Assembly (NCBI GenBank): GCA_035540755.1
Contig: DATLGD010000164.1
Location: forward strand, 12-64,011
DNA length: 64,000 bases
Direction: 5' to 3'
Source of the DNA: Mycobacteriales bacterium
GTDB lineage: Bacteria > Actinomycetota > Actinomycetes > Mycobacteriales > SCTD01
The first letter of the stretch is position 1. Each line of letters opens with the position of its first letter. Position numbers and translations under genes: made by a program. Shown here in pieces: positions 33,933-62,439 of the stretch. The notes beneath the pieces were generated by a model. The model was not told where the DNA came from and made no database searches. It saw nothing but the letters and a program-made list of their open reading frames with translations.

Positions 33933-33941
33933 CCCCGCAGG

Positions 33942-35543: not shown

Positions 35544-35576
35544 GACGTCAGGCTAGCCGTCGGCGGAAGCCGAAGG

Positions 35577-35909: not shown

Positions 35910-36019
35910 GAGGGGCCAGTCCTCTCGGTCGACCGCAGTAGTGCGGCACTGACACCTTCGGCAGCGGTGGCGAGGGCCTTGAACCGAGGTCTTGACACGC
36001 AGACGTGGACGTGGTGGGG

Positions 36020-37938: not shown

Positions 37939-38013
37939 GAGGCGGGACGCTAGTGCAGACCGGGCCGGGCGGGGGCCGGATGTGCACGGGCGGGTCGCGC
38001 GTACCCTCCCCCG

Positions 38014-40972: not shown

Positions 40973-40985
40973 GGCGCCCACGCTG

Positions 40986-43032: not shown

Positions 43033-43070
43033 GGGAGCGCTCCTTCGCGGCGGGGCTGTCCGCGTCGAAC

Positions 43071-47369: not shown

Positions 47370-48340
47370 CGGCCGTACACCCGGTCGAGCACCGCAGCGG
47401 TGGTGACCAGCTCCTCGTTGGCCGGGTCGTACCGCTCGCCCGCGGCGAGCCGCCGGGTCCAGTCGACGGCGGCGCGGCCGCCCCAGGCGTCCGGCGGCTC
47501 GACCAGCACCGAGCGACTCGTCCCGGTGTGCCGGGTGGCGCGGAAGTCGTAGAAGGAGCCCCCGACGTTGGTGAGCGCGACGGCGCCGGAGGTGCCGTGG
47601 AAGGTCGCGGCGATGACCGCCTCCTGCCCGGCGTGCAGGTTCCACGAGCAGCCGAGCGTCAGGACCCGGCCACCGGTGAGGTCGATCCTCGCGGTGGCGA
47701 AGTCCTCGACGACGTCGGTGCGGCCGTCGAGCGGGCGGCCGCCGGCGAACAGCCGCGAGCAGACGCCCTCGACTCCGGCTCCGGGCAGCAGGTGCAGCGC
47801 GAGGTCGACCAGGTGGGTGCCGAGGTCGATGACGCAGCCGCCGCCGGACAGCTCCGGGTCCCGGAACCACGGCTTGTCCGGCCCGTAGGCGTTGTGGAAG
47901 ACGAGCTCCGCGGCGTAGACCTCGCCGAGCTCGCCGGACTCGAGCACCTTGCGCAGCGCCTCGGTGGCGGCCAGGTGGCGGTAGGACAGGTCGACCCCGA
48001 GCAGCCGGTCGGCGACGCGGGCGGCAGCCACCACCTCCGCGGTCTCGGCGGCGGTGCGGCCGAGCGGCTTCTGGCAGAAGACGGCGCTGCCGCCCCGCAG
48101 CGCCGCGAGCGTCTGCTCGGCGTGCAGCGCGCTCGGGGTGGCGATGACGACGCCGTCGAGGCCGGCTGCGAGCAGCTCCTCCGGACGGACGGCCTCGGCA
48201 CCCGCCTCGGCGGCGGCCTCCGCGGCGGCCTGGGGGGAGGCGTCCGCAACCAGCGTCGCCTCGGCCAGCCCGCTGGCGACGATCGCCCGCATCCGGTCCC
48301 GGCCGATCCACCCGACGCCGAGGAAGCCCAGCCGGGTCAT
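47366..48340 (-). CDS. Gfo/Idh/MocA-family NAD(P)-dependent oxidoreductase
   Basis: 324 aa with a Rossmann N-terminus (RLGFLGVGWIGRDR), the consensus EKP-like motif (FCQKPL) and a C-terminal alpha/beta domain. Confidence 0.85.
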   Translation of the reverse strand: MTRLGFLGVGWIGRDRMRAIVASGLAEATLVADASPQAAAEAAAEAGAEAVRPEELLAAGLDGVVIATPSALHAEQTLAALRGGSAVFCQKPLGRTAAETAEVVAAARVADRLLGVDLSYRHLAATEALRKVLESGELGEVYAAELVFHNAYGPDKPWFRDPELSGGGCVIDLGTHLVDLALHLLPGAGVEGVCSRLFAGGRPLDGRTDVVEDFATARIDLTGGRVLTLGCSWNLHAGQEAVIAATFHGTSGAVALTNVGGSFYDFRATRHTGTSRSVLVEPPDAWGGRAAVDWTRRLAAGERYDPANEELVTTAAVLDRVYGR

Positions 48341-49272
48341 GAGGTGACCAGGGCCTTGACGAAGCCCTCCGGCCGCTCGGCGGCGGCATCCATCGCCGCC
48401 TTCAGGTCCTCCAGCGGGAAGGCGTGCGTGTAGAGCGGCCGCGGGTCGAGCCGGCCGGACGCGACGGCGTCGACAGCTGCGCGGATCCCCCGCAGCTGCA
48501 CCTCGGGGTCGCGCTCGTGGGCGTTGACGACGTCGATCCCGCGCCAGTTCCACAGCTGGACGTTCACCGACCGCAGGCCGTCCTGGTGGAATCCGGCGAT
48601 GACCAGCCGGCCGCCGAAGCCGGTGAGCTCTCCGGACAGGTCGAGCGGCCAGGGCGCGCCGGTTCCCTCGACCACCCGCTCGCAGAACGTCCCTCCGGTC
48701 AGGCCGGCGACCTCGTCGATCACGCGCGCGTGGTCGTCCATGAGGACCGTCTCGGCGGCCCCCATCTGCCGGGCCACCTGCAGGGCCGACTCCTTCCGAG
48801 CGACCGCGACGACGCGGCAGCCGGCCGCCGCGGCCAGGGCCACGAGCAGCGCGCCGAGGAAGCCCACGCCGACCACCGCGACGGTCTGCCCCGGCTCGAA
48901 GCCGCTGCGCCGGGCGGCGTTGAACGCGCAGCCGATCGCCTCGCCGGGGAACGGCTGGCCGTCCAGCTCGGGCGGCAGCGGGACGAGCCGGTCCGCCGGC
49001 ACCACCAGCTCGTCGGTGAAGGCGTCCTCGGCCAGCAGCGCGACGCGCGTGCCTTCGCCGCGCCCCTCCACGACCCGACCCCAGGCCTCGTGGCCGGGGT
49101 TGCCCGGCCGCAGCGGGTAGTCGAACCACGGTCGCCCCTCCCAGGCGGGCAGGTTCGAGCCGCAAACGCCGCAGCCCTCGACCGCGACCCGGACGCTGCC
49201 GGGGACCAGCGGCGGTGAGGCGCCCTGCACCAGCTCGACGGACCCGGGGCTCGTCACCACCGCGCTGCGCAC
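48337..49272 (-). CDS. Zinc-type medium-chain alcohol/polyol dehydrogenase
   Basis: 311 aa with CGVCGSNL, GHEAWGRV and the NAD-binding motif VAVVGVGFLGALLV. Confidence 0.85.
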   Translation of the reverse strand: MRSAVVTSPGSVELVQGASPPLVPGSVRVAVEGCGVCGSNLPAWEGRPWFDYPLRPGNPGHEAWGRVVEGRGEGTRVALLAEDAFTDELVVPADRLVPLPPELDGQPFPGEAIGCAFNAARRSGFEPGQTVAVVGVGFLGALLVALAAAAGCRVVAVARKESALQVARQMGAAETVLMDDHARVIDEVAGLTGGTFCERVVEGTGAPWPLDLSGELTGFGGRLVIAGFHQDGLRSVNVQLWNWRGIDVVNAHERDPEVQLRGIRAAVDAVASGRLDPRPLYTHAFPLEDLKAAMDAAAERPEGFVKALVTS

Positions 49273-49280
49273 GACCGCGC

Positions 49281-50318
49281 TCAGCCCGCTCTCGACGCCG
49301 CGACCCGCGCGCCCGAGGACGCCAGCCAGTCGTGCAGCAGCTTCACGCCCTCCTCGGGCGAGGTCTTCGGCGCCCAGCCAGTGGCCTCGGCGAAGCGGCG
49401 GGTGTCGGAGACGTAGTAGCGCTGGTCACCGACGCGCCAGTCGCCGAAGCGGACCTCCGGAGCCGGGCCTAGCGTCCCGATGAGCTCCAGCAGCTCGAGC
49501 AGGCTGACCGTGCTCTGCGGGCCGCCACCCATGTTGAAGGCCTGTCCCCGGAGGTCGTCGGCGGCGCCGATCGCGAGCTCCATCGCGTCGAGCAGGTCGT
49601 CGACGTAGAGCACGTCGCGGACCTGCCGGCCGTCGCCGTACAGCGTGATCGGGGCGCGGTCGCGGGCCTGCAGGAGGAAGTGCGCGACCCAGCCCTGGTC
49701 CTCGTTGCCCTGCTGGTGCGGCCCGTAGATGCAGCTCATCCGGAAGACGACGTGCGGCATCCCGTAGGTCTGCGCGTAGTCCAGGACGTACTGGTCCGCC
49801 CCGCCCTTGGAGCAGCCGTACGGGCTGGCGAACTGCAGCGGCCAGTGCTCGCCGATGCCGTGCTCGCGCACCTGCTCGTCGACCGGCTCGTACCGCCCGC
49901 CCCGCTGCTCGACCCGCAACCCGGCGAGCTTGCCGTAGACCTTGTTGGTGGAGGTGAACAGCAGCGGCGGTGGGTCGCTGCGACGGCGCAGCTCCTCGAG
50001 CAGCGCGATCGTGCCGCCGAGGTTGACCGAGTAGTCGTGCACCGGCTCGGTCACCGACGTCGTCACCGCGACCTGCGCGGCGAAGTGGAAGACCCGGTCG
50101 GCCTTCCGGGCGGCGGTGCGGACGTCGTCGGCGCTGCGGACGTCGCCGCGCACGACCTCGAGGCGGTCGGGATGGGTGTGCTCCAGCCACTGCAGGTTGG
50201 TCCGGACACCGGGGCGCGACAGGTCGTCGAGCACGACCACCCGCTCCCCCGCCTGCAGCAGGCGGGCCGCGAGGTTGGTCCCGACGAAGCCGGCTCCTCC
50301 GGTGACGAGGGAGGTCAT
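49281..50318 (-). CDS. NAD-dependent SDR epimerase/dehydratase (CDP-paratose 2-epimerase / UDP-hexose 4-epimerase-like)
   Basis: 345 aa from the ATG at 50318: LVTGGAGFVGTNL, SPYGCSKGGADQY (YxxxK), QGWVAHF. Only the C-terminal third of the 1067-aa track ORF is real. Confidence 0.85.
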   Translation of the reverse strand: MTSLVTGGAGFVGTNLAARLLQAGERVVVLDDLSRPGVRTNLQWLEHTHPDRLEVVRGDVRSADDVRTAARKADRVFHFAAQVAVTTSVTEPVHDYSVNLGGTIALLEELRRRSDPPPLLFTSTNKVYGKLAGLRVEQRGGRYEPVDEQVREHGIGEHWPLQFASPYGCSKGGADQYVLDYAQTYGMPHVVFRMSCIYGPHQQGNEDQGWVAHFLLQARDRAPITLYGDGRQVRDVLYVDDLLDAMELAIGAADDLRGQAFNMGGGPQSTVSLLELLELIGTLGPAPEVRFGDWRVGDQRYYVSDTRRFAEATGWAPKTSPEEGVKLLHDWLASSGARVAASRAG

Positions 50319-51433
50319 ACGGCGAGCCCGCGCCGGGCCAGCTCGGCGGTCGCGGCATCGACGCCGTCCACCGCCACCTGCCCCTCGAGCCACTCGGCCA
50401 GCTCGGTCAGGCCCTTCTCCAGCGTCACCTGGGGCACGTACCCGAGCACCTGCCCGGCGCGCGAGACGTCGGCGAAGCAGTGCCGGATGTCGCCGACGCG
50501 GAACGTCCCGGTGGCCTCCGGGGTGATGTCGGTCCGGTCGAGGATCTGCGCCAGCGAGGTGGCGATCTCGTTGACCGTGATGCTCTGGCCGCTGCCGACG
50601 TTGAGCACCTCCCCGGCCGCCGCCTCGCCCGCGGACAGGGCGAGGGCGCAGGCCCGGGCCACGTCGTGCACGCTGACGAAGTCGCGCTGCTGCGCGCCGT
50701 CCTCGAAGATCAGCGGCGGGCGGCCGTTGAGCAGCCGCGAGGCGAAGATCGCCAGCACGCCGGTGTAGGGGTTCGACAGGGCCTGGTAGGGCCCGTAGGC
50801 GTTGAAGAAGCGCAGCGCGACGGTCGGGACCTTGTACGCCTCGCCGAACATCAGGCAGAGCCGCTCCTGGTCGTACTTGCCCAGGGCGTAGACGCTGGAC
50901 AGCGTCGGCGGCTTGTCCTCCGCGGTAGGCACCGGGGTCAGGGCCTGCCCCTGCGGCCCCACCGGCTCCCAGCGCCCGGCCTCGAGGTCGCTGCGCCGGC
51001 GCATCACGGCGGGCACCGGGTCGCCGACGGCGTCGACGTAGCGGCCCTCGCCGTACACGCTCATGCTGGACGCCACGAGCAGCTGCTCCACCGGCGTCTC
51101 GGCCAGCGCCTCGAGCAGCACGCCGGTGCCGACGCCGTTGACCGAGGTGTACTCGGCGATCTCGTACATGCTCTGGCCGACGCCGACCCGGGCCGCCAGG
51201 TGCGCCACCCGGTCCGCGCCCGCGAGGGCGCGGCGGACGGCCTCGGGGTCGCGGACGTCGCCGACCACCAGCTCGACGTCGTCCGGGAGGTAGCCCGGCC
51301 GCTCGCCGGAGGGGTGGACCTGAGGGTGGAGCACGTCGAGCACCCGGACCCGGTCCCCGGCCTCCAGCAGCTCGCGGGCGAGGTGAGCGCCGATGAAGCC
51401 GGCGCCGCCGGTGATGAGGACGGTGCGGGACAT
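50315..51433 (-). CDS. NAD-dependent SDR epimerase/dehydratase
   Basis: 372 aa: [25 protein letters not shown] (YxxxK), RFFNAYGP. It carries an insertion relative to GalE-type enzymes. It is the first gene of the minus-strand operon. Confidence 0.85.
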
Positions 51434-51554
51434 GCGTTCTCTCTTCGCTCGGCGAACGGCTGATCCTCAGATCTGGTCCATCTCCGGACAACCTAAACGA
51501 GATGCTGCTGATGCTGCTGACGTCGATCCGCGGCGCGTCGGCCATAGTGTGCCG

Positions 51555-52511
51555 ATGACGAAGAGGACCGTGGTGACGGGCGGCGCCGGCTTCCTGGGGT
51601 CGCACCTGTGCGAGCAGCTGCTGCAGCGGGACCACGAGGTGGTGGCCCTCGACAACTTCCTGACCGGCTCGGCGGCCAACGTCGAGCACCTGATGGAGGA
51701 CGACCGCTTCCGGCTGATCAAGGCCGACGTCACCGACTACGTGCACGTTCCGGGGCCGGTGGACGACGTCCTGCACTTCGCCAGCCCTGCCTCGCCGGTC
51801 GACTACCTCGAGCTGCCGATCGAGACGATGAAGGTCGGCTCGATCGGCACGCTGCACGCCCTCGGCCTGGCCAAGGAGAAGGGCGCCCGCTTCCTGCTCG
51901 CCTCCACCTCCGAGACCTACGGGGACCCGCAGGTCCACCCCCAGCCCGAGGACTACTGGGGGCACGTGAACCCGGTGGGCCCCCGAGGGGTGTACGACGA
52001 GGCGAAGCGGTTCGCCGAGGCCCTGACGATGGCCTACCGGCGCACCCACGACGTCGACACGGCGATCGTGCGGATCTTCAACACCTACGGCCCCCGGATG
52101 CGGCCCAACGACGGACGGGCCATCCCGACCTTTATCCGCCAGGCGCTGGCCGACGAGCCGATCACGGTCGCCGGCGACGGCACCCAGACCCGCAGCGTCT
52201 GCTACGTGGACGACCTGGTCACCGGCCTGCTGGCGCTGCTGGAGTCCGACCTGGCTGGGCCGGTCAACATCGGCAACCCGCAGGAGCTGTCGATGCTCGA
52301 GCTGGCGACGCGCATCGTCGACCTCACCGGCTCCTCGAGCCCGATCACCTTCGTCGAGCGGCCGGTCGACGACCCGAGCGTGCGCCGGCCCGACATCCGG
52401 CTGGCCCGGAACGCGCTGGGCTGGGAGCCGACCGTCGACCTCGACGCCGGCCTGCGGCAGACGATCGCCTGGTTCGAGCGGCACGAGGCGCTGCAGCGCG
52501 ACGTCGCCTGA
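51555..52511 (+). CDS. uxs: UDP-glucuronate decarboxylase (UDP-xylose synthase)
   Basis: 318 aa from the ATG at 51555: [90 protein letters not shown]. It is divergent from the glycosyltransferase operon. Confidence 0.88.
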
Positions 52512-52527: not shown

Positions 52528-53910
52528 TCAGCGCAGCTCGGTCCAGCCGGACCACGCCGTGCCGGCCCCGGTCGCCCGGTAGAGCTTGCCGTCGGTGCCG
52601 TGCACCACGACGTCGGCGCGGTCGCTGCCGGTCGTGGCCGCGACGCTGGGCGCCGACGACAGGGCGCCGCCGAGGGCCGTCCAGCCGGCGTCGCCGGTCG
52701 GTCGCATCCGCTGGACGTAGGTGCGGTCGTCCGGCCCGCGCACGGCCAGGACGGGCCCGCTCGCGGACGGAGCCAGCCCCACGTCGCCCTTGGCCGCGCC
52801 GCCCAGGCGCGACCACGGCGTCCAGGTGCTGCCGGCGCGGGTGCGCCGCCAGGGGCCGCCGTCGGTGCCGAGCACGACCACCTCGAGCACCTCGGGGCCG
52901 GAGCGCACCAGGCCGGGGCCGGATGCCTCGAGGACGCCGCCGCCGGCGCTCGCCCAGCCGCCCTGCTTCAGGCCGGCGTCGAAGGACGTCAGCCAGGTCC
53001 TGCCGTCGGCGCCGCGCACGGCGACGTCGAACCCGCCGGCGAGGTCGGAGGCCACGGCGGGTCGGGTCGACAGCAGACCGCCGCCGGGCAGCCAGCCGGT
53101 CCAGGCCTTGCCGGGCGGCCTGGTGTTCACCCAGAGCGCGTCGTCGGTGCCGCGGCCGGCCGCCACCAGCGTGCCGTCGGTGAGGACCGCGGTGCCGAGG
53201 CCGCCGACCACGGAGCCGCCCAGCCCGGTGGCCGTGCCGAACCCGCCGCCGGGGCGCCAGGTGCGCTGGGTGCCGGACCCGGCAGTGCTGCGCAGCACCA
53301 GGGAGAGCCCGTCGCCGTCGATCGCCAGCCCCGGCGTCGGTGCCGACGTGCGCAGCCACCAGCTGGTGCTCTGCCGGGCGCCGCTCCAGCTGAGCGAGAA
53401 GTGCACGTGGTCGACGTGCGGGTTGCTGCCCGTGTACGGGCTCCACCCGGGGTTGGTGCCGTAGGCCTTGAAGACCTGCTTGTTCCAGATGATGTACATG
53501 ATGCCGAGCCGGCGCGCCCTGGCGTGCGCGTTGCCGTTGTCGTCGGGCTCGGTGAGCCAGGCGAGCAGCTCGTCGGCCGCCGCCTTCTCCTCCGGCTTGT
53601 CCGCGTGGACCGGCCAGTCCCAGGCCCGGCCGTCCTTGTGCTCGCTGGTGCCGCCCGAGGCGCAGTCGCGCAGCAGGTACCCCTTGCGGAACGCCGGGTA
53701 GGCCGAGGTGACGAGCTCCTGCAGGGCGACGACGCCCGGGGTGGGCACGGCGGCGCAGCGGGTCTGGCCGTCGTAGCGGGCGTAGGGGTCGACGGTCGCG
53801 GTGCTGAAGGTGGGCGTGGCCGGCGGCGCGGCCAGCGCGGTCCCGCCGACGAGCAGGGCGGCGGCGAGGGCCACAGGCAGCAGGGCACGACGGGTGGAAC
53901 GGCGGGGCAT
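52528..53910 (-). CDS. Secreted LAS/M15-type metallopeptidase-like domain fused to a C-terminal Trp-rich beta-propeller repeat domain
   Basis: Signal peptide MPRRSTRRALLPVALAAALLVGGTALAAP. The N-domain has SEHKDGRAWDW (SxHxxGxAxD) and NPHVDHVHFS (HxH-containing), typical of VanY/M15 peptidases. The C-terminal ~280 aa carry 5-6 repeats of about 47 aa (WTGWLPGGG, WTPWSRLGG, GWTALGG ... VVVHGTDGKLY) and end in WSGWTELR. Confidence 0.7.
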   Translation of the reverse strand: MPRRSTRRALLPVALAAALLVGGTALAAPPATPTFSTATVDPYARYDGQTRCAAVPTPGVVALQELVTSAYPAFRKGYLLRDCASGGTSEHKDGRAWDWPVHADKPEEKAAADELLAWLTEPDDNGNAHARARRLGIMYIIWNKQVFKAYGTNPGWSPYTGSNPHVDHVHFSLSWSGARQSTSWWLRTSAPTPGLAIDGDGLSLVLRSTAGSGTQRTWRPGGGFGTATGLGGSVVGGLGTAVLTDGTLVAAGRGTDDALWVNTRPPGKAWTGWLPGGGLLSTRPAVASDLAGGFDVAVRGADGRTWLTSFDAGLKQGGWASAGGGVLEASGPGLVRSGPEVLEVVVLGTDGGPWRRTRAGSTWTPWSRLGGAAKGDVGLAPSASGPVLAVRGPDDRTYVQRMRPTGDAGWTALGGALSSAPSVAATTGSDRADVVVHGTDGKLYRATGAGTAWSGWTELR

Positions 53911-54023
53911 GGGATCTCTTCCACGTCAGGGCGCGTCCGGAGGCGGACGGCTCTCGGTGCGGCTCTGCGGGAGCCGGTCTGTCTCTGCAGGTCTCGACCA
54001 GGTCCGGCCGGCCCTGTAGGCCG

Positions 54024-56216
54024 TCAGCTCAGGCGTCTCCATCCGCTCCAGGGACCGGTCGTCCGGGAGGTGACGTAGAAGGCTCCGTCCAGGCCGACCG
54101 CGAAGGCGTCGACGCGACCGCCGCCGAGGGCCGCCGCAGCCGCGGGAGCGCCCAGCAGCTGTCCTCCGAGGGTGCTCCACGACGCGCTGTCGGTGCGGGT
54201 CCAGCCCGCGAGATCGGGCCCGCGGCCGGTGACGACCAGCTCACCACCGGGGCTCGCTGCGCCGACGCCGCCGGCGAGGCCGCCGCCCAGCGGCTGCCAC
54301 GCCTTCCAGCCGCCGTCGTAGGAGCGCCGCCAGGCGCGGTTGTCGGTGCCCTGGACGACGACGTCGAGCCGGCCGGCGCTGACCTGCGCCACCGCGGGGC
54401 CCGTGCCGTTCGCGGCGGTGCCGCCCAGGGCGTACCACCCCGACCAGACGCCCGGCCTCGGGGAGTGCCTGTGCCACAGCTGCCGGTCGGGTCCGACGAC
54501 GACCACGTGCATCCCGTCGCCGTACGCGGCCGCTGCGGGACGGCCGGCCAGCTTCCCGCCGAGCGGCTGCCAGCCGGTCCACGACGACGAGTCCGGCGCC
54601 CGGCGGTTGGTCCAGAGCTGGTCGTCGGTACCCCAGGCGAAGACCTCCCGCCAGCCGGACGTGCGGCCGGCGACGGCCGGGCCGCCCCGGGAGGCCCCGC
54701 CCAGCGAGGTCGTCGCGCTCACCGCGCTCCCCCCGGCCCACCTGCCGACCGCGACGCTGCCGTCCGGCCGGCGCCATGCCAGCTCGACGGCGCCGCCTGG
54801 AGCCGCCCAGGCTCCGGTCAGGTCGGTCTGCGGCGGCAGCCGCAGCGACCACCAGCTCGACCGGATGCCGTCGGACCGCCCGCTGCCGTAGGCGTAGGCG
54901 TTGCGGATGCCGTCGCCGGTGGTGCGCACCGACGTGGTGGCGCCGTTGGCGGCGGTGCCGCGCAGCTCGACGTCGAGCACCCGGCCGCCCCACTCGCCGT
55001 TGCCGTCGCGCCGGTGCACCACCACGGCGGTGAGCCGGCCGACCGCTGGGAAGGCCGACTGCAGCGCAGACACCGGCAGCCTGCCGCTCCAGCGGTGGTG
55101 CGGGTTGTTCCCGAGACCGTCCCAGCCGTCCTGCTGCGCCGGCAGCCACGACTGGCCCCCGGCGACCGTCCAGCCGCCGTTGCTCGAGCTGAACTCGGCC
55201 CGGATCGGCTCCCCGCCCGAGGTGCGGACCAGATGGGCAGTGCTGCGGATGGCCGCATCGGTGCTCGCGACCTCGACGGACGTCGTCGTGCCCCGGTCGG
55301 TGATGGTCATGCCCGCGTAGACCTGGCAGTAGGTGCTGTCGCAGATGTCCCATACCGAGCCGGCGGGCCGGCTCCGGCGGTAGTTCTCGGCGTAGGAGCG
55401 GGCCGCCACCGCCTGGGCCTCGAGCGCGGCCGGGCGCCAGCTGGTGATCGCCTCCCGGGGCACCACGGCGCGCAGGTACTCCTCGCGCGGCACGTGGTTG
55501 ATCCGGGCCATGGTCGTCGGGGAGGTGCGGACCGCGGCCAGGCTCCCCCGGTACTGGCGGTTGCTCCCGTCCTCGTACTGCACCCGCAGCACGGAGGCCG
55601 AAGGCCGCCACAGCTCGACCTGCGTCGCATGCACGTAGATGCCGCCGAGCGGGTACGCACGCCAGCGCAGTCCGGCCCAGGCCTCGAGGACCAGGCCCTC
55701 GGGGTCGTTGCGGACCCGCCAGCTCTCCACCCGGGCGCCCTCGACGGACTCGGGCAGGGCGGTGTCCGTCCCGGACCTCGAGCGCGCCCACAGGCCCGGC
55801 TGCACCAGCACCTCGAGCTCGCAGAACCGGGCGCCGCTGCTGTCGCACTCGTACCGCCGGTCGGTGCTCGCCGAGCCGCCGGGCAGCCGACCCTCCCTGC
55901 CCTCGCGGGTCAGCACGACCCGCACGGGCGCCCCCGACGGCCAGGCCGTCGAGGCGGTGCCGCGGTAGTAGGCGCTGAGGATCGTCGCCGACGACACGCC
56001 CTGCAGGGCGGCACCCTGCATGCCGTACTGCGACATGCCCCGGCCGTGGCCGAAGCCGCGGCCGTCGACCTCGAAGACGCCGCTGGACGGCACGGGGTAG
56101 ATCTCGGCGGCGACGGCAGACGGCGCGACGAGGGCGAGGCCGCTGGCGGCGACGACGGTCGCCAGCCCGGCGACGGACGCCCGCCGGAGCGCGGTGCGAA
56201 GAGCAGTGGTGGGCAT
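54024..56216 (-). CDS. Secreted SpoIID/LytB-domain protein fused to a C-terminal Trp-rich beta-propeller repeat domain
   Basis: 730 aa from the ATG at 56216, preceded by a GGAGGA SD. Signal peptide ...LATVVAASGLALVAPSAVAAE. SpoIID signature GRGFGHGRGMSQYGMQGAA and a later YCQVYAG. The C-terminal repeats include WTGWQPLGG, WSGWYALGG, WKAWQPLGG, WSTLGG and end in WSGWRRLS. Confidence 0.75.
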   Translation of the reverse strand: MPTTALRTALRRASVAGLATVVAASGLALVAPSAVAAEIYPVPSSGVFEVDGRGFGHGRGMSQYGMQGAALQGVSSATILSAYYRGTASTAWPSGAPVRVVLTREGREGRLPGGSASTDRRYECDSSGARFCELEVLVQPGLWARSRSGTDTALPESVEGARVESWRVRNDPEGLVLEAWAGLRWRAYPLGGIYVHATQVELWRPSASVLRVQYEDGSNRQYRGSLAAVRTSPTTMARINHVPREEYLRAVVPREAITSWRPAALEAQAVAARSYAENYRRSRPAGSVWDICDSTYCQVYAGMTITDRGTTTSVEVASTDAAIRSTAHLVRTSGGEPIRAEFSSSNGGWTVAGGQSWLPAQQDGWDGLGNNPHHRWSGRLPVSALQSAFPAVGRLTAVVVHRRDGNGEWGGRVLDVELRGTAANGATTSVRTTGDGIRNAYAYGSGRSDGIRSSWWSLRLPPQTDLTGAWAAPGGAVELAWRRPDGSVAVGRWAGGSAVSATTSLGGASRGGPAVAGRTSGWREVFAWGTDDQLWTNRRAPDSSSWTGWQPLGGKLAGRPAAAAYGDGMHVVVVGPDRQLWHRHSPRPGVWSGWYALGGTAANGTGPAVAQVSAGRLDVVVQGTDNRAWRRSYDGGWKAWQPLGGGLAGGVGAASPGGELVVTGRGPDLAGWTRTDSASWSTLGGQLLGAPAAAAALGGGRVDAFAVGLDGAFYVTSRTTGPWSGWRRLS

Positions 56217-56293
56217 CTGTGGTCCTCCGGTCGTGCGGACCGCAGGGGGTCCGGTTTGCGTCGGGCGGCACGTGGCCGCCGGGGGGTGGGCCG

Positions 56294-58426
56294 CTAGCCC
56301 AGGCGCTGCCAGCCGCTCCACGTGGAGCCGATGCGCACGGTGCGCCAGACGGCCTCGTCGGCACCGACCGCGGTGACCTCGACCCGGCCGGTGCCGGGGA
56401 CGGCGGTGACGGACGGGGCGCTGAGCAGCTTGCCGCCCAGGCTCCGCCACGTGCCGACGCCGGTCGCGCTCACGTCACGCACCCAGATGGCGCTGTCGGT
56501 GCCGCGGGCGGCGACCAGGACGTTGTCCGCCGAGGGCGACGCCGCCGAGACGTCGTCGAGCGTGCGCCCGCCGATCGCCTGCCAGGCGGACCAGCCCCTG
56601 GCCGCGGTCCAGGCCCGCCGGTGCAGCTGCCCGTCCAGGCCGACGACGACGACCTCGTAGCGCCCGGCGGGCGTCCACGTCGACGCGGGGCCCGTGCCGA
56701 CGAGCATGAGGCCCCCGAGCCGCTCCCAGCTGGACCACTGACCCGCCTTGTGCGAGAACCGGTAGGCCGCCGCGCCGTCGGTCTGGCGGACGAGCACGTT
56801 GAGGCTGCTGCCGCTCGCGGCGACCGACGGCCGCGACGTGACGCTGCCGCCGAGCGACGACCACCCGACCCAGCTGCTCGTGCCGGCCAGCTGTCCGTTG
56901 ACCCAGAGCTGGTCGTCGGTGCCGCGAGCGAAGACGTTGAGCACCGAGGTGCCGCGCCAGGCGGCCGTGGGGGCGCCGACCACGACGCCGCCGAGGGCGG
57001 TGGCGGGGCGCAGGGCGCCGTTCTCGATCCGACGGTGGGTCGCGGCGCCGGTCGACGAGCGCTGCACGAGATCGGTGCTCCCGGTGCTGCGCGCGGCCGT
57101 GGTGAGCGGACCCCAGCTCGGCCCGACGGCGGGAGCCGGAGCCGGCGCAGGGGCGGGTGCCGGAGCGGGTGCCGGAGAAGGCGACGGAGAAGGCGACGGT
57201 GAAGGCGCCGGCGCTGTGCTGCCGCCCTGCTGCGCCTCCCAGGCCTTCGTCCGCATGGCGGGCAGCGTGGCCATCCCGTTGTTGCCCGGGCAGTCGGTGG
57301 TGCTGACGTCCCGGTGGCCGTGGACGCGCGGCAGGGTCACGACCGTGCCCTTCTTGTAGCGGGTGCTGCCGCCGGAGGTCATCTGCACGGTGCTGCGGGG
57401 GTCCCGGCCGTACAGGCCCAGCTTCCAGCCGACCAGCTTGGCCACGGTGTCCTGCATGGCCGCGGGCGGCGTCACGCTGCTGTAGGTGCCGATCATCGAG
57501 ATGCCGACCGTGTTGGTGTTGAAGCCGCCGGCGTGCGCACCGATGACGGGCCGCTCCACGCCGCCGTGGCGGCCCTCCCAGGCGGTGCCGAACTTGTCGA
57601 CCAGGACGTTGTAGCCGATGTCGGACCACCCCAGGCTGTTGACGTGGTAGGCGTAGAAGCCGCGGATGATCCCCGGCACGTCGCTCGCCGTGTAGGAGTT
57701 CGAGCTGGCGGTGTGGTGGATGGTCGCCGCGCTGAGGGTCGAGGAGTAGGACGGGCTGCCCTTGCGGATCGACTCGTCGGCGCCCCACTGCGCACGGGTG
57801 CGGATCGCGGGCCTCGCGGCGGCGGCGTGAGCGGTCGACGCCGGGGCGCCGGTGCGCACGACCGCCGCGTCGGCCGGTGACTCGCCCGGGTCGATGAGCT
57901 CGAGCCGCACCTTGCGGGGAGCGGCTCCGGACACGACGTCGACCCGCGCCTGCACGCCGTCGGCCTCGCCGACCCACAGCGGAGAGGTGCCGGCGCGGCC
58001 GGTGGCCGCGTCGAGGTGCTGCAGGTCGGGCTCCTCGTCGGCGAGGCCGCCGATGTCCTCCCAGTCCGACCAGGTGCCGTCCGTGCGGGTGCGGACGAAC
58101 GCCTCGACCTCACCCACCTCCGGGCCGTGCTCCCAGGTGACGCCGACCATCTCGAACGGCTGCGTGCTGCGCTCTGCGGTGAGGGCGAGCGTGCGCCGGC
58201 TCCGGCCGGCGGCGGCGAGGTCGCTGCGCCGGGCAACGGCGGGCGCCCCGACCTCGGGCACCGCCGGTGCGCTCGCGGCGGCCACCGGCTCCACGGCGTC
58301 GAGGGCGACCGTGACGACCTCCGGCGCCACCGGCCGCGGGGCCGGCTCCGGTCGGTCGACCACCGGGAGCGCCAGCAGGACCGGGGTCAGGACGGACAGC
58401 AGGGCCAGGTCACGGGGCTTGCGCAC
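56294..58426 (-). CDS. Secreted N-acetylmuramoyl-L-alanine amidase (Amidase_2/PGRP type) fused to a C-terminal Trp-rich beta-propeller repeat domain
   Basis: 710 aa from GTG 58426, with GGAG 8 nt upstream. After the signal/TM segment comes the amidase core: RAQWGADES, ATIHHTAS, FYAYHVNSLGWSDIGYNVLVDKFG..WEGR, GAHAGGFNTNTVGISMIG. A (PS)n(PA)n linker follows, then repeats WVGWSSLGG, WSSWERLGG, WSAWQAIGG, WRSLGG, ending in WSGWQRLG. Confidence 0.8.
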   Translation of the reverse strand: MRKPRDLALLSVLTPVLLALPVVDRPEPAPRPVAPEVVTVALDAVEPVAAASAPAVPEVGAPAVARRSDLAAAGRSRRTLALTAERSTQPFEMVGVTWEHGPEVGEVEAFVRTRTDGTWSDWEDIGGLADEEPDLQHLDAATGRAGTSPLWVGEADGVQARVDVVSGAAPRKVRLELIDPGESPADAAVVRTGAPASTAHAAAARPAIRTRAQWGADESIRKGSPSYSSTLSAATIHHTASSNSYTASDVPGIIRGFYAYHVNSLGWSDIGYNVLVDKFGTAWEGRHGGVERPVIGAHAGGFNTNTVGISMIGTYSSVTPPAAMQDTVAKLVGWKLGLYGRDPRSTVQMTSGGSTRYKKGTVVTLPRVHGHRDVSTTDCPGNNGMATLPAMRTKAWEAQQGGSTAPAPSPSPSPSPSPAPAPAPAPAPAPAPAVGPSWGPLTTAARSTGSTDLVQRSSTGAATHRRIENGALRPATALGGVVVGAPTAAWRGTSVLNVFARGTDDQLWVNGQLAGTSSWVGWSSLGGSVTSRPSVAASGSSLNVLVRQTDGAAAYRFSHKAGQWSSWERLGGLMLVGTGPASTWTPAGRYEVVVVGLDGQLHRRAWTAARGWSAWQAIGGRTLDDVSAASPSADNVLVAARGTDSAIWVRDVSATGVGTWRSLGGKLLSAPSVTAVPGTGRVEVTAVGADEAVWRTVRIGSTWSGWQRLG
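57128..57210 (-). repeat. Low-complexity dinucleotide-codon repeat encoding a (Pro-Ser)n(Pro-Ala)n linker
   Basis: The region encodes APSPSPSPSPSPAPAPAPAPAPAPAPA, between the amidase domain and the propeller domain. Confidence 0.85.
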
Positions 58427-58754
58427 GCGAGGAGCTCCAAACGTCTCACCGGCGACACGGCACTGGACCGGGCGGCCTTCCGGGCCGCCGCGTCCGCGTC
58501 GACGAGGTCTTCCTGCTGTTCGACCGGTTCCCCCGCAGGCTTGACCCCGCAAGGAGCGCCGCTTGTCACAGCAGCCACAGGAGTCTCACCGGGATCGGAG
58601 CCGTTGACCAGGGGTTCGGGCCGCTTTTCCCGCTTCGGCCCGCCGACCGGTCACGTTCAGTAGCAGGTCGATGACAGTCACGCTCAAGGAAGTGACGCAG
58701 AGCGACGAGAGAACGGGGGTGCCCCTCTCTGCCAGCCGCCTGGAAGGTTCGACG

Positions 58755-60116
58755 ATGACAGACCGACGGAGCTCCCGTCCTCCGGACCGCCCGACGCCCA
58801 CGCAGCGACTGCTCGCCGTCGTCCTCGCGATCGTCGCCTCCCTGGCCGCCTTCGCGGTCGCCGCGTCACCGGCGTCGGCGGCGTCGGCCGACCCCGGCGC
58901 CGAGCTCGACATGCTCACCTCGCTGAACGCCGAGCGCAGCTCCCGCGGCCTGCACACCCTCCGCGCCACCGTCGACCTCGTCGACGTCGCCCGCCGGCAC
59001 GCCGGCTGGATGGCCGACAACGGCTCGCTCCAGCACAACGGCCGGCTGGCCACGGACGTGGCGGGCTGGACGATGCTGTCGGAGAACGTCGGCTACAGCG
59101 GCAACCCGACGACCCTGCACAACGCGCTCATGAACAGCACCGGCCACCGGGCCAACATCCTCGACGGCCGTCCCACCCAGGTCGGCGTCGGCGCGGCGCG
59201 CGACTCCCGCGGCGTCCTGTGGGTCACCCAGGTGTTCCGCCGTCCGGATGCCTCGACGGTCAACGCCCCCACCGCCGTGCTCGGCCTCGGTGCCGCCGGG
59301 ACGCCCGATGTGGCAGTGGCCTCGGTCGGCACCCTGTACACCGCCGAGCGCGGCTCCGACGGCACCACCGGCGTGCGCCTGATGACCGACTCCGGGTTCT
59401 CCGGCGGCGCGACGCCGCTGGGCGGAGCCAGCCTGGAGTCGCCGGCGATCGACGCCACACCGAAGGGGCAGATCAGCGTCGTCGCCCGCGGCACCGACAG
59501 GGCGCTGTGGCTGCGCAGCAAGGCCGACTCCGGGTCGGGCTGGCAGCCCTGGCTGCGGCTCGGCGGGAGCGGCACCTCCCGCCCTGCGGTGGCGTCGTGG
59601 GCCCAGGGCCGGCTCGACGTCGTCGTGCGCGGTGGCGACGGTGCCCTGTGGCACCGCAGCCAGACCTCCCCCGGCTCCTGGACCGGCTGGATGCCGCTCG
59701 GCGGCGCCATCGCCGAGGGGGCCGACGCCGACATCGTGTCGACCGGCTTCGGCAAGCTGACGGTCGCCGTGCAGGGCCGCGACTCCCAGATCTGGGCGCG
59801 CAGCTTCTCGCTCGGCTCCGGCTGGACCCCGTGGACGCCGCTGCGCGGGCACTCCAAGGGCGGCCCGACGCTGTCGTCCCCCGGCAGCGGCCGCGTCGTC
59901 GTCGCGATGAAGGGACTGGACGACGCCGGCTGGACGATGAACCTCGACGGCGGCCGGCTCGGGAGCTGGAACCGCCTGGGCGGTGTGCTGAAGACCGCAC
60001 CGACCTCCGCCGGCAGCGGCGGCCGCGTGGACGTGGTGACCGTCGGCACCGACGGCCTGCTCTACCGCGTCACGCAGGTCGACGGCCGCTGGTCCTCCTG
60101 GCGCCGCGTCAGCTGA
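58755..60116 (+). CDS. Secreted CAP/SCP (PR-1-like) domain protein fused to a C-terminal Trp-rich beta-propeller repeat domain
   Basis: 453 aa from the ATG at 58755; the track ORF starts at 58671. Signal peptide LLAVVLAIVASLAAFAVAASPASA. CAP domain: LNAERSSRGLHTL.....ARRHAGWMA..GSLQHN....NVGY......LHNALMNSTGHRANIL....QVGVG......LWVTQVF. Repeats include WQPWLRLGG, WTGWMPLGG, WTPWTPLRG, WNRLGG and end in WSSWRRVS. Confidence 0.75.
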   Translation: MTDRRSSRPPDRPTPTQRLLAVVLAIVASLAAFAVAASPASAASADPGAELDMLTSLNAERSSRGLHTLRATVDLVDVARRHAGWMADNGSLQHNGRLATDVAGWTMLSENVGYSGNPTTLHNALMNSTGHRANILDGRPTQVGVGAARDSRGVLWVTQVFRRPDASTVNAPTAVLGLGAAGTPDVAVASVGTLYTAERGSDGTTGVRLMTDSGFSGGATPLGGASLESPAIDATPKGQISVVARGTDRALWLRSKADSGSGWQPWLRLGGSGTSRPAVASWAQGRLDVVVRGGDGALWHRSQTSPGSWTGWMPLGGAIAEGADADIVSTGFGKLTVAVQGRDSQIWARSFSLGSGWTPWTPLRGHSKGGPTLSSPGSGRVVVAMKGLDDAGWTMNLDGGRLGSWNRLGGVLKTAPTSAGSGGRVDVVTVGTDGLLYRVTQVDGRWSSWRRVS

Positions 60117-60126: not shown

Positions 60127-62439
60127 CTACGCCTCCACGGCGGCCGGTCCCTCGGGGGCCGGCCGCCGTCGGCGTCCGCGGGGCCGGGCGGTCGACAGCG
60201 GCACCAGCACCGAACCGACCCCGAGTGCCACCAGCGAGGCGCCGGCCAGCACGGTGAGTCGCAGCACGCGGGGCGATCGATACGTCAGCTCGAGCCGGCC
60301 GGCGTCCCCGGGAGCGACGTCGACCGCGACGAGCAGGTCCCCGTGCCGCTGCACCTCGACCGGCTCCCCGTCGAGGGTGGCGGAGTACCCGGGGAACCAG
60401 AGCCGCGCGAACACCAGGCGGCCCTCCTCCGTCCCGCCCCGGACGTCCACGCACTCGTGGTTCGGACCGGCGCCGCACTCCTGTTCGGTGACCGCCGCCA
60501 CCGCCGTGCCGGGGGACACGTAGGACAGCAGGCCCGGCAGGTCGTAGGTCGGTCCGCGGTAGGTGGCGGTCCACTCCCCCTCGGACGTCCGGGTCCAGGG
60601 TGCACCGAGGACGTCCTCGAGCTCGTCGGCGCGGTCGCCGAGCAGCGCGATGACCTGGTCCACGCGGAGCAGCTCGAGCCAGGTCACGCCGGTCGCGGGG
60701 TCGAAGGCGGCGAAGCGCGCCGCTCCGCCGGCGCGGAAGTTGCCCTGGTCGTCCATCGGGAAGCGGTCCCGGAAGAAGCGGTTGCCCAGCGGGCTGTAGC
60801 CGTTGACCTGCCGGGTGCCGGCCATCAGGCCGGTCGAGGACGGGTGGTACTCCGCGTAGAACGAGCGCAGCTCCTCGGCGCTGGCGTCAGTGCGCGGATA
60901 GGTGCCGTAGAAGAGCGTGTAGTCCTCGAGGCTGAGCGGCTCGACGGTGCGCAGGTCGCTCGGGAAGCCGTAGTCGATGCCTCGCGGCTCAGGGTGCAGC
61001 ACCGCCAGCCAGCCCAGCAGCAGGACCGTGCCTGAGGCGATCACGGCGTCGGCGAGCGGGCCGCGCCAGCGGGCGGCGCGGGCATGCGATCGGCTCCCGA
61101 GCCACCAGGTCGCCGCGACGAGGGCGGCGAGCGCCAGGCACAGCGGCAGGATCCGGTCCCCGCCCAGCGGGTCGGCCTGCAGCGAGTTGAGCGTCAGCAG
61201 GGCCACCAGCCCGAGCAGCACCCCGAGCCTGCGGCGGGTGAAGGCGAAGCTGCCCCGGGCCACCAGGAGCGCCGCGGTCACCAGCAGGAAGAAGCCGAAG
61301 TACTGCAGGAAGCGGGTCGGGAAGCGGAACACGAGCACGCGCTCGGGACCGAGCGCTCCCAACGCGGCCAGGACCACGGCGGCGACCGCGGTCAGCAGCA
61401 GCGCCCGGGTGCGCGCCTCGAACGGCCCCCGTCGCCAGAGCACCAGCACCGGCAGCACGAACCAGGCGACGTAGAAGTGCGGCAGCTCCTGCCGGGCCAG
61501 CCCGCCGAAGTTGACGAACCAGCCCCAGTAGCTGGGGTCGGCGAAGTGCAGCAGGCCCTCCAGCGGCACCACGTTGAAGTTGGCGTTGTTGCGCATGCCG
61601 GCGCTGCGGGTGGCCAGCGCGAAGGACGCGACCAGGGGGTACAGGGCCACCAGCGACGCGATGACGCCGCCGGCGTACCAGGCGCCGAGCCATGCCGTGT
61701 CGCGGCGCGGCGCCCGCAGCGCCAGCCGCGCCAGCAGCAGCGTGGCCACGACGATGCCGAGGAACGGGATGGCCAGCGGCCACCCGCTCGTGCAGGCGCC
61801 GTAGGTGCCGAGCAGCACGGCCCAGCCGTACCGGCGGCGCGGCTGCTGGTGGAAGGCCATCGCCGCGGCGACGGCCACGACGAACCAGGTGAAGGACGTC
61901 ACCGCCTGGTACCAGCCCGCTCCCCACACCCACGTGTAGGGCTGGAAGCCCACCGACACGGCGAAGGCCACGGTCCAGCCCGCGGACAGCCCGAGCGTGC
62001 GGCCGAGCCAGGCCGCCGCCGCGGTGAGGACCACGGCGTGGACGAGGAAGTAGACGAACGAGCCGAACGCGACGTCGTCCACGCCGGCCAGGAACACGCT
62101 GAGCGCGACGTTGACCGGGTTGTAGATGGCGTTCTGGTACTCGATCGCGTGCCCGCTGCTCTCGACGAGGTCGGTGCTGAGCCACGGCCAGTGGCCCGAC
62201 CGGACGATGCGCCCGATGTCGATGAGCTTGGGGACGGCGTCGGCCTGCCGGTCGTCGACGAAGAAGAAGCGGGAGTTGCGCAGGTACAGCAGGGACACCA
62301 GGCCGGCCACCGCGAGCACCGACACGGCCCCCGACAGCGGGCCGCTCCAGGTGCGAGGGCGGGGGCGCTCCGCGACCGGCCAGGGGGCCCCCCGGACGTC
62401 CGGTGCGCTCAGGGTGTCCACCGGCGCGGCTGTGCGCAT
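60127..62439 (-). CDS. Large polytopic membrane protein with YfhO-like (GT-C glycosyltransferase-like) architecture
   Basis: 770 aa. About 12-14 TM segments fill the first ~480 aa, followed by a ~240-aa soluble (extracytoplasmic) domain and one C-terminal TM anchor (LAGASLVALGVGSVLVPL). A motif near the end, LWFPGYSATLDGEPV, resembles the YfhO C-terminal pattern. The call rests on architecture and is not verified. Confidence 0.55.
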   Translation of the reverse strand: MRTAAPVDTLSAPDVRGAPWPVAERPRPRTWSGPLSGAVSVLAVAGLVSLLYLRNSRFFFVDDRQADAVPKLIDIGRIVRSGHWPWLSTDLVESSGHAIEYQNAIYNPVNVALSVFLAGVDDVAFGSFVYFLVHAVVLTAAAAWLGRTLGLSAGWTVAFAVSVGFQPYTWVWGAGWYQAVTSFTWFVVAVAAAMAFHQQPRRRYGWAVLLGTYGACTSGWPLAIPFLGIVVATLLLARLALRAPRRDTAWLGAWYAGGVIASLVALYPLVASFALATRSAGMRNNANFNVVPLEGLLHFADPSYWGWFVNFGGLARQELPHFYVAWFVLPVLVLWRRGPFEARTRALLLTAVAAVVLAALGALGPERVLVFRFPTRFLQYFGFFLLVTAALLVARGSFAFTRRRLGVLLGLVALLTLNSLQADPLGGDRILPLCLALAALVAATWWLGSRSHARAARWRGPLADAVIASGTVLLLGWLAVLHPEPRGIDYGFPSDLRTVEPLSLEDYTLFYGTYPRTDASAEELRSFYAEYHPSSTGLMAGTRQVNGYSPLGNRFFRDRFPMDDQGNFRAGGAARFAAFDPATGVTWLELLRVDQVIALLGDRADELEDVLGAPWTRTSEGEWTATYRGPTYDLPGLLSYVSPGTAVAAVTEQECGAGPNHECVDVRGGTEEGRLVFARLWFPGYSATLDGEPVEVQRHGDLLVAVDVAPGDAGRLELTYRSPRVLRLTVLAGASLVALGVGSVLVPLSTARPRGRRRRPAPEGPAAVEA

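Follow-up and report, generated by a model that had tools for sequence, protein, structure and literature searches.

Introduction

The positioning of autolysins is poorly known in actinobacteria outside the well-studied mycobacteria. Here we describe four adjacent genes (A to D) in a stretch of 64,000 nucleotides (hereafter, the window), which makes up almost all of a 64-kb metagenome contig (ENA ERZ27256763, k141_309188) of an uncultured soil actinobacterium assigned to the Mycobacteriales. Each of the four proteins joins a different N-terminal domain to the same C-terminal module, a beta-propeller homologous to the PLL lectins of Photorhabdus. On the basis of the sequence, we consider it probable that this propeller is a shared wall-glycan targeting module of the producer's own peptidoglycan-remodelling proteins.

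Comparable arrangements are known from other bacteria. The pneumococcal choline-binding proteins (LytA, LytB, LytC, CbpD, Pce and others) are varied wall hydrolases and non-enzymes that share one repeat module, which binds non-covalently to a secondary-wall-polymer decoration made by dedicated genes. In that system, however, the module is a choline-binding solenoid, the ligand is phosphocholine on teichoic acid and the genes are dispersed, whereas the window holds propeller genes in one cluster with a proposed link to a wall polymer. Many secreted proteins, including amidases and other hydrolases, likewise share a wall-polysaccharide-binding module in the CWB2 and SLH systems. The CWB2 proteins of Clostridioides difficile bind the polysaccharide PSII, and many cwp genes of this species lie beside the polysaccharide synthesis locus; SLH proteins bind a pyruvylated secondary cell wall polymer (SCWP). 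These systems of the Firmicutes use other binding folds and their ligands are known, whereas the ligand is presumed here. LGFP repeats (Pfam PF08310) are found on surface proteins of Corynebacteriales and Mycobacteriales (PMC2447325). They take the same position on the same enzyme families as the propeller (the VldE+LGFP protein P0010, and an Rv3811_N + Amidase_2 + LGFP protein described below), but the repeat is unrelated; its ligand is poorly defined as well. The principle that several autolysins share one module binding a secondary wall polymer is well known from these examples. An original prediction, made from the sequence alone, knew of no described system in which a full set of peptidoglycan-cleaving activities shares one lectin-like targeting domain beside a dedicated glycan-synthesis operon, and the choline-binding, CWB2/PSII, SLH/SCWP and LGFP precedents make that statement too strong. 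What is new is the module itself, a six-bladed derivative of a family studied only as free seven-bladed lectins of an insect pathogen, and its packaging with a predicted GT-C glycosyltransferase gene in a conserved five-gene unit.

The closest relatives of the module are the PLL and PHL lectins (PropLec7A, PF26607/DUF346). The two groups share sequence homology (to E 3.6e-70), the best structure match, the blade motif and, in most blades of the window, the hydrophobic pocket formed by two Trp residues. The PLL and PHL proteins are free-standing, seven-bladed lectins of an insect pathogen. In contrast, the propellers of the window have six blades, have lost the P/Gal sites and have a degenerate blade 1; they are C-terminal modules of actinobacterial enzymes with signal peptides, and their presumed ligand is on the bacterial envelope. 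What the very large PLL/DUF346 family (~10,000 clusters at 50% identity) does in nature has been studied only in Photorhabdus. Six-bladed propeller lectins of actinobacteria are also represented by the Streptomyces UmbA proteins, which bind actinobacterial wall teichuronic acid (10.1101/2025.04.24.650519). These are likewise fused to another domain and read wall glycopolymers in inter-blade pockets, but they target competitors, diversify fast and form part of a toxin particle.

Gene organization

The guanine-cytosine (GC) content was ~75% throughout the window, and genes were therefore called by GC content at third codon positions (GC3). The four neighbouring genes that had been predicted were confirmed by codon statistics (GC3 0.95-0.98 in the frames and on the strands given here); the open reading frames (ORFs) that overlap them are antisense shadows from high GC. 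Gene A (52528..53910, minus strand; GC3 0.98) encodes 460 aa with a signal peptide, a predicted VldE-type LAS/clan MD zinc L,D-endopeptidase and a six-bladed PLL-type propeller (precomputed annotations PF26571 and PF26607), and is labelled hypothetical protein by NCBI in a Mycobacteriales metagenome-assembled genome (MAG). Gene B (54024..56216, minus strand) encodes 730 aa with a signal peptide, a SpoIID/LytB region recognized by Pfam, TIGR02669 and PDB 4RWR (E 1.8e-15), and a six-bladed propeller. Gene C (56294..58426, minus strand) encodes 710 aa comprising a hydrophobic N-terminus, an Rv3811_N-like region, an Amidase_2/PGRP domain, a Pro/Ala/Ser linker and a six-bladed propeller. Gene D (58755..60116, plus strand) encodes 453 aa with a signal peptide, a CAP/SCP (YkwD-like) domain and a six-bladed propeller. 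One public gene call starts D at an upstream ATG (58671) and yields 481 aa; the start at 58755 is favoured by the length of the orthologue (454 aa), by GC3 and by where the signal peptide lies.

On the minus strand the order is C, B, A, head to tail, and successive genes are 77 and 113 bp apart; C and D are divergent with 328 bp between them. At the two ends of the cluster, D converges on a gene for a 770-aa membrane protein and A converges on a gene of the sugar-nucleotide dehydratase family. A signal peptide had been predicted on all four proteins. Read by eye, the N-termini of A, B and D each start with a basic n-region that leads into a hydrophobic core and an AxA-type site (ALA-AP, AVA-AE and ASA-AS, respectively, the hyphen marking the cleavage position), so that the prediction stood for these three. 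In C, a basic n-region is followed by a 17-residue hydrophobic core without a clear cleavage site, and this N-terminus may therefore be a signal anchor.

The shared propeller module

The module is 265-272 aa long, C-terminal in all four proteins, and has a Trp content of 4.4-6.7%. When the modules were compared with PDB sequences using phmmer, they matched the Photorhabdus lectins PLL, PLL2-5 and PHL. The propellers of A (52531..53328, minus strand; aa 195-460) and B (54027..54821, minus strand; aa 466-730) matched PLL4 (8Q82) with E 2.5e-32 and E 2.7e-69, respectively, and that of C (56297..57112, minus strand; aa 439-710) matched PHL (5MXE; E 6.4e-37), with six blade matches each in B and C. 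The propeller of D (59304..60113, plus strand; aa 184-453) is the copy closest to the PLL lectins (PLL2, 6RFZ; E 3.6e-70). PF26607 was precomputed on A, B and D. Further, the blade motif (PAV / GRLDVVxRGTD / xLW / WxxWxxLGG) is the same as that of the PLL lectins.

The AlphaFold2 (AF2) model of A (predicted local distance difference test, pLDDT, 93.1; predicted template modelling score, pTM, 0.89) has 24 DSSP strands after residue 194, that is, 6 x 4. When this model was searched with Foldseek, the best 22 matches were all PHL/PLL structures (E 1e-20 to 1e-17, template modelling (TM) score ~0.65), followed by the six-bladed fucose lectins AAL, AFL and AofleA and then by CV39L and RSL. The resemblance to DUF346/PLL that had been noted earlier is thus real homology, and it was borne out that one module is common to the peptide cutter A, the glycan-strand enzyme B, the amidase C and the CAP protein D.

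A blade hidden Markov model (HMM) found six blades of 38-48 aa in each protein, 24 in the window, and no blade outside the four genes in any frame of the whole window. The original prediction had counted 5-7 repeats and proposed a six- or seven-bladed propeller; the propeller fold held, with exactly six blades rather than the seven of the PLL lectins. A seven-bladed propeller was rejected, as the HMM count, inspection by eye and the AF2 model all gave six complete four-strand blades. Two distant relatives (P0009 and P0124) carry extra C-terminal repeat sequence past the end of the window proteins. In the register of the PLL blades (beta1, PAV..; beta2, LDVVVRG; beta3, xLW; beta4, WxxWxxLGG), all four proteins end exactly after beta4 of blade 6. 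The terminal strings WSGWTELR, WSGWRRLS, WSGWQRLG and WSSWRRVS had been read as a common half-repeat that signals velcro closure. The strings themselves were found as described, but given where the proteins end in the blade register, the half-repeat results from the repeat phase chosen and is not evidence for a velcro.

Pfam and NCBIfam scans of the propellers at E<=10 detected nothing except a weak CV39L match for D, in a Pfam copy that lacked PF26607 (Beta-prop_PLL), PF26571 (VldE) and PF27503 (Rv3811_N). The scans that returned no family are therefore no evidence of novelty. The DUF346 repeat model misses the divergent blades of the window, yet it matches 37 of 71 relatives.

Residues of the predicted sugar-binding sites

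In site 3F of PHL, the sugar is contacted by T194, W199 and W214 (PMC5584973), and C6 of fucose is held in PLL3 by two Trp residues together with a Ser/Thr from turn T2 (PMC12203525). The polar sites of the PLL lectins use R-x-E, a Gln and further Trp residues (PMC12203525, PMC5584973). When the 24 blades of the window were aligned with PLL2 blades, the PHL 3F residues mapped onto GTD..xLW..WxxW. The aromatic pair of the H/Fuc pocket is kept in 18 of the 24 blades (five each in A, B and D, and three in C), where Tyr is accepted at beta3, as in the ligand-occupied PLL2 blades W5 and W6. Across orthologues, the propeller residues W270, W273, W319, W366, W410, W453 and W456, invariant in the A family, are pocket Trp residues.

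Among the PLL2 and PHL structures in the Foldseek list, the ligands include 3-O-methyl-glucose, the O-methylated PGL-1 disaccharide and L-rhamnose. By analogy with PHL and PLL, in which the two-aromatic pocket holds the methyl group of L-fucose, L-rhamnose and O-methyl sugars, the pocket kept in most blades of the window would have the same role. Such a pattern would suit a lectin that has as many as five hydrophobic pockets and takes up a sugar of the 6-deoxy or methylated kind.

Enzyme domains

The catalytic domain of A (53335..53826, minus strand; aa 29-192) carries the precomputed annotation PF26571 (VldE), and had no match in the Pfam copy scanned, which lacks this family. VldE (Spr1875) is a pneumococcal L,D-endopeptidase of the LAS fold and clan MD that cuts cross-linked stem peptides; its Zn-1 is held by H301, D308 and H375, and the HxH motif (H373) is extended by H370 and D372 (PMC11667670). 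A profile of 24 sequences of the A domain (A2) matched S. pneumoniae VldE (PDB 9FLH) with E 8.4e-8 over profile positions 20-137, and sEHkdGRAlDw and HtdHvHfS were paired with GDHGKGLAIDF and HYDHVHVS, respectively. H91, D98, H168 and H170 of A align with H301, D308, H373 and H375 of VldE, and H91, D98 and H170 are the candidate Zn ligands, with H168-x-H170 as the HxH motif. The extra H165 and D167, which correspond to the zinc-zipper residues H370 and D372, are also kept, and all six residues (H91, D98, H165, D167, H168 and H170) are invariant in the 24 homologues. Thus the Zn ligands (H/D/H) and the extended H-x-D-H-x-H are common to the two proteins, but the identity is ~25%, E368 of VldE is replaced by Asn in A, and VldE has an N-terminal wall-binding module (LysM by the PDB chain name) where A has a C-terminal propeller. 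The M15/LAS-like assignment made earlier was right and is sharpened to VldE type, clan MD; A is a VldE-type zinc L,D-endopeptidase by homology, and its activity is predicted.

Two cysteines of A, C52 and C83, are invariant across actinobacterial homologues of the VldE domain and absent from pneumococcal VldE, which suggests a disulfide specific to the actinobacterial branch.

The SpoIID/LytB region of B (54837..56108, minus strand; aa 37-460) matched Pfam SpoIID (PF08486; E 3e-20, 72.9 bits, cutoff 23) and TIGR02669 (131.9 bits, cutoff 83.3), and contains GHGRGMSQYG at aa 56-65 and VVPREAITSW at aa 251-260. In the alignment with B. anthracis SpoIID (4RWR), aa 235-356 pair with chain residues 60-183 and aa 49-86 with chain residues 278-315. 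The Glu of VVPREAITSW pairs with the Glu of GVVASEM, and GFGHGRGMSQYG with GFGHGVGMSQYG of 4RWR. In SpoIID structures, the Glu of the VVASEM motif is the catalytic residue. The order of the segments is swapped relative to Bacillus SpoIID: the GHGxGMSQ segment, which is C-terminal in 4RWR, is N-terminal in B, and the segment matching 60-183 follows ~150 residues later. To judge from the alignment, the domain may have been circularly permuted, or actinobacterial LytB-type proteins may normally be arranged in this way. B is thus assigned by homology as an enzyme of the SpoIID/LytB type with predicted activity.

The Amidase_2 domain of C (57281..57733, minus strand; aa 232-382) matched Pfam PF01510 (E 6e-15, 56.1 bits, cutoff 26) and PGRP structures (E 5e-15). 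The motifs IHHTAS (236-241), HGHRDV (369-374) and TDCPG (377-381), whose cores IHHT, HGHRD and TDCPG were read directly from the sequence, presumably provide the candidate Zn ligands, following the known Amidase_2/T7-lysozyme pattern. Orthologues of C in two other contigs (L005 and L006, described below) carry precomputed PF27503 (Rv3811_N), PF01510 and PF26607, and the N-region of C is 56-73% identical to them by tblastn and 70% identical to that of L005 by global alignment. C is assigned by homology as an Ami3/Rv3811-type MurNAc-L-Ala amidase with predicted activity. Between its amidase domain and propeller lies a 29-residue Pro/Ala/Ser linker (57128-57214, aa 405-433; APAPSPSPSPSPSPAPAPAPAPAPAPAPA), which produced spurious PDB matches to low-complexity regions of transporters and receptors.

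D matched Pfam CAP (PF00188; E 4.5e-12, 47.3 bits, cutoff 21.1), and YkwD (TIGR02909) with E 5.8e-16 and 58.6 bits, which is under the cutoff of 171. Further CAP+PLL fusions are present in other metagenomes and in a MAG of Candidatus Dormibacter. By sequence, D belongs to the CAP/SCP proteins, a class to which homology assigns no function. A link of its CAP domain to the divisome lipoprotein DalA was dropped, as it rested on a sub-threshold NCBIfam match (E 0.0075) and the DalA paper makes no mention of CAP. The earlier SpoIID/LytB, Amidase_2/PGRP and CAP calls were all correct.

Conservation of the cluster

On a contig from another metagenome (L005, a JGI contig), the C-terminus of a membrane protein is followed by CAP-PLL, Rv3811_N-Amidase_2-PLL, SpoIID-PLL and VldE-PLL genes, in the same order and orientation as in the window; these genes are 59-62% identical to those of the window. 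Contigs of two further samples (L006 and L096) contain a partial cluster, namely the part that fits on each contig. Thus the gene order and the neighbouring GT-C gene recur in three other metagenome contigs at 55-62% identity, and are present in four samples including the window. On this comparison, the cluster is a conserved five-gene unit consisting of a predicted GT-C gene and four genes for propeller proteins. In cultured or GTDB species genomes, one scan found no four-gene cluster; VldE+propeller fusions and some adjacent propeller pairs were found instead.

The propellers of the four paralogues are 34-44% identical to one another, whereas each is 56-63% identical to its orthologue in L005. 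The duplication is therefore old. A recent tandem duplication, which alignment of the blades was expected to reveal if the propellers were recent paralogues, was rejected on the same figures. The normalised similarity score was 0.30 between blades at the same position of different proteins, compared with 0.17 between blades at different positions and 0.18 between blades within one protein. Since blades at the same position are most alike, one six-blade unit was duplicated whole. The identity between orthologues is 56-63% for propellers and 64-70% for catalytic domains; the propellers diverge only slightly faster, and there is therefore no sign of arms-race diversification.

The neighbouring GT-C protein

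The gene convergent with D (60127..62439, minus strand) encodes a 770-aa polytopic membrane protein that has no Pfam or NCBIfam match. Its AF2 model (pLDDT 84.9, pTM 0.89) matched in Foldseek only GT-C enzymes, namely STT3, AftD, DPY19, EmbA/B/C and ALG9 (E 2e-4 to 4e-2, TM 0.4-0.49). Of the two adjacent Asp residues in its first extracytoplasmic loop, D63 is invariant and D62 almost so. PF09586 (YfhO) is annotated on a few homologues. From the modelled fold, the protein is predicted to be a glycosyltransferase of the GT-C fold.

The gene adjoins PLL genes in L005, L006 and L096. More than 60 orthologue clusters were found, including those of Blastococcus and Geodermatophilus, and almost all are unannotated. 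The orthologues adjoin genes for GT2, GtrA-like or small transporters, GlfT2, Glf, Wzm/Wzt and a TylF-type methyltransferase. To judge from gene content, these loci have the make-up of a locus for the synthesis or decoration of a wall polysaccharide. In one of them (L092; ENA ERZ27252406), propeller ORFs lie beside the GT-C orthologue in a GlfT2/Glf/Wzm-Wzt/methyltransferase locus: a glucose/sorbosone dehydrogenase (GSDH)+PLL gene (12181-14172) and a second, short propeller ORF (16123-16631). In another (L093), an Rv3811_N + Amidase_2 protein (6800-8677, minus strand) beside the GT-C orthologue ends in LGFP-like repeats and has no propeller. By its domain composition, this would be a natural module swap in the GT-C neighbourhood, in an amidase that is a putative orthologue of C.

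The propeller family in other genomes

An exhaustive search with the propeller of D recovered 9,939 representatives at 50% identity with E<=1e-3, and 4,826 with E<=1e-10. The partners of the propeller include CAP, peroxiredoxin, YkuD, GH18, GH25, M23, M43, C1, C39-like, C70 and CHAP domains, and further polysaccharide deacetylase, NAGPA, Rv2525c-like, astacin and oxidase domains. The propeller-enzyme architecture is thus common and already captured by Pfam, although the NCBI labels are still hypothetical. We found no paper on the propeller as an enzyme-targeting module. In homologues of the VldE domain (43-58% domain identity), the place of the propeller is taken by LGFP, PG_binding_1/3, CW_binding_2, FG-GAP or Ig-like domains.

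VldE+propeller fusions occur in many Streptomyces (including S. rimosus), in Actinomadura and Spirillospora and in a MAG of Chloroflexota (Limnocylindrales), and a second propeller gene often adjoins the fusion gene in Streptomyces, Actinomadura and Spirillospora. The gene that comes next after the VldE+propeller gene in Actinomadura and in Streptomyces, S. rimosus among them, encodes a second propeller protein (L014 8947-9840, L028 12034-12969 and L033 11997-12788). The second protein has an N-terminal domain of ~150 aa with the motifs GWVESHMNN and GVFQQRPSQGWG and no Pfam match, which from its sequence context may be an undescribed wall-hydrolase domain. In Spirillospora (L012), the two proteins are apparently fused in a single 1028-aa ORF.

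Interpretation of the cluster

In the explanation that we favour as probable, the four genes would encode secreted peptidoglycan-remodelling proteins acting on the producer's own wall, and the propeller would target them to a wall glycan. A would cleave cross-linked stem peptides, as characterised VldE does, C would strip stem peptides as an amidase, and B would cut glycan strands denuded by an amidase, following the Bacillus SpoIID/SpoIIP paradigm. The propeller would be a multivalent lectin that gathers the four proteins at a sugar polymer of the envelope other than peptidoglycan; it would fill the role that LGFP, PG_binding, CW_binding_2, SLH and choline-binding repeats have in related enzymes.

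More speculatively, in view of the adjacency in four contigs, the GT-C neighbour, whose orthologues lie in galactofuranan-type loci with sugar O-methyltransferase genes, might install the sugar that the propeller reads. We offer only tentatively, as a possibility of rather low probability, that the cluster is a "write and read" unit, in which the GT-C protein adds a 6-deoxy or O-methylated sugar to a galactan-type wall polymer and the propellers read this mark. The GT-C protein is proposed to make the ligand because PLL2 and PHL bind O-methyl sugars, the PGL-1 disaccharide and L-rhamnose, and because GT-C loci hold TylF-type methyltransferases. A glycan code would then govern where the endopeptidase, the amidase, the SpoIID-type enzyme and the CAP protein are placed. 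If true, such a unit would be for actinobacteria what the choline system is for pneumococci, and would use a lectin fold that until now has been known only from free lectins associated with virulence.

Several observations weigh against a wall-glycan targeting module and its proposed writer. The full triad (T/S, W/Y and W) is present in only 9 of the 24 blades, and blade 1, which is degenerate in all four proteins, has no aromatic pair. The polar (P/Gal) signature, R-x-E with the HIWQ Trp, is absent: T, R or S stands in place of this Trp in practically every blade, and the Glu is often Asp or another residue. The propeller also occurs on non-wall enzymes, namely peroxiredoxins, proteases, galactose/glyoxal oxidases and astacin, and is therefore a general extracellular module rather than a tag of wall hydrolases. 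CAP is not a known wall enzyme. Most loci of GT-C orthologues have no PLL neighbour (L087-L091, L094 and L095), and Pfam/NCBIfam annotation detected no methyltransferase in the sugar operon of the window.

An outward-directed lytic cocktail is an unlikely alternative. The propellers would then recognise a glycopolymer of competitors, prey or host, and the enzymes would serve antagonism or nutrient release. The only characterised PLL-family proteins act on the glycans of other organisms (PMC12203525, PMC5584973), and the six-bladed propeller lectins of Streptomyces umbrella toxins pick the wall glycopolymers of competitors (10.1101/2025.04.24.650519). Further, the four proteins are secreted without an obvious covalent anchor on any of them, and the same propeller is found on GH18, GH25, proteases and CHAP, typical of secreted lytic exoenzymes. 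However, relatives of VldE, SpoIID/LytB and Ami3/Rv3811 are housekeeping autolysins (PMC11667670, PMC3987819). The cluster lies in the core chromosome, between prcA and pafA and at uniform GC, beside the producer's own envelope-glycan genes in four contigs, and no immunity gene is evident. Between orthologues, the propellers are conserved to almost the same degree as the catalytic domains, which speaks against a lectin that diversifies and is directed at competitors. In addition, the Ami3-like amidase of L093, which shares domain composition and neighbourhood with C, carries LGFP, a self-wall anchor.

It is improbable that the lectin function has been lost and that the propeller is a protein scaffold, an autoinhibitory or stabilising domain or a direct binder of peptidoglycan, which might assemble the four proteins into one complex or hold them in the wall otherwise. 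Such a loss would account for the missing blade relative to PLL, the missing P sites and the degenerate blade 1, and fusion to non-wall enzymes would be expected of a generic extracellular module. Beta-propellers often serve as platforms for interactions, and as PLL lectins oligomerise via blade loops, hetero-oligomers of the four propellers are conceivable. Yet the residues kept across paralogues and orthologues are the pocket aromatics, W(beta3) and WxxW; the nearest structures after PLL are all sugar-binding six-bladed lectins, and known wall-binding modules fill the same position in homologues. That the proteins share no function, their adjacency arising from local duplication and shuffling of a promiscuous extracellular module, agrees with the size of the family (9,939 representatives, dozens of partner domains) and with the adjacent PLL gene pairs in Streptomyces, Actinomadura and Spirillospora, but is very improbable given that content, order and orientation with the GT-C gene are kept in L005 and partly in L006 and L096 at 55-62% identity, that the divergence of the paralogues predates the split from L005, and that the activities of the three enzymes complement one another as steps in breaking down peptidoglycan.

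The five-gene unit is a compact test case, in which four different cargo domains share a single targeting module and the gene for an enzyme that may make the ligand is adjacent. Should the propeller prove to anchor proteins to a wall glycan, the few modules known to target bacterial walls would gain a new fold, ligands such as 6-deoxy or O-methyl sugars would be suggested for thousands of unannotated actinobacterial proteins, and lysins against mycolata-like envelopes could be engineered with new modules. Otherwise, the finding is a correct but ordinary domain annotation.

Surrounding genes

Ten sugar-metabolism genes, identified using Pfam and NCBIfam, precede the cluster (42433..52511). They encode a PhyH-type protein, three tandem Glyco_trans_1_2 proteins, a GT4 glycosyltransferase, a GFO/IDH/MocA protein, a Zn-dependent alcohol dehydrogenase (Zn-ADH) and three proteins of the NDP-sugar dehydratase/epimerase family. 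The original prediction tied the cluster to this operon at 43-52 kb. In L005, however, the gene after VldE-PLL is GlfT2-like and not the dehydratase-family gene of the window. When the operon genes were compared with 86 loci by tblastn, only isolated weak matches (28-34% identity) were found outside contigs identical to the window, and the 80 genome loci of VldE-domain genes (L007-L086), 28 of which have a propeller, had at most isolated weak operon matches within 10 kb. Propeller fusions thus occur without the operon, and since the operon is absent beside other propeller loci, the proposed link is not conserved. A conserved linkage of cluster and operon was rejected accordingly. The three tandem paralogous genes of PF13524 (43071-46344, minus strand) have the PhyH-type dioxygenase gene on one side and the remaining operon genes on the other, and no NCBIfam equivalog matched the operon of these three genes.

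A horizontally acquired island was rejected as the origin of the cluster: the GC content (0.745-0.763) and GC3 match those of the flanks, and there are no mobility genes among the annotated genes at 36-64 kb. Scans of the locus for promoter and terminator consensus sequences found none and are uninformative at 75% GC.

The cluster and the sugar operon are situated within an actinobacterial Pup-proteasome neighbourhood (31194-42260 and 62571-63841). One flank contains a prcA-like gene (63137-63841) and an FKBP gene (62571-63140). The other contains pafA (40986-42260), a second FKBP gene, a gene for a PafC-like regulator, tatA/tatC-like genes and a DEAD/DSHCT helicase gene. The distance between prcA and pafA is 20 kb and holds the cluster and the operon.

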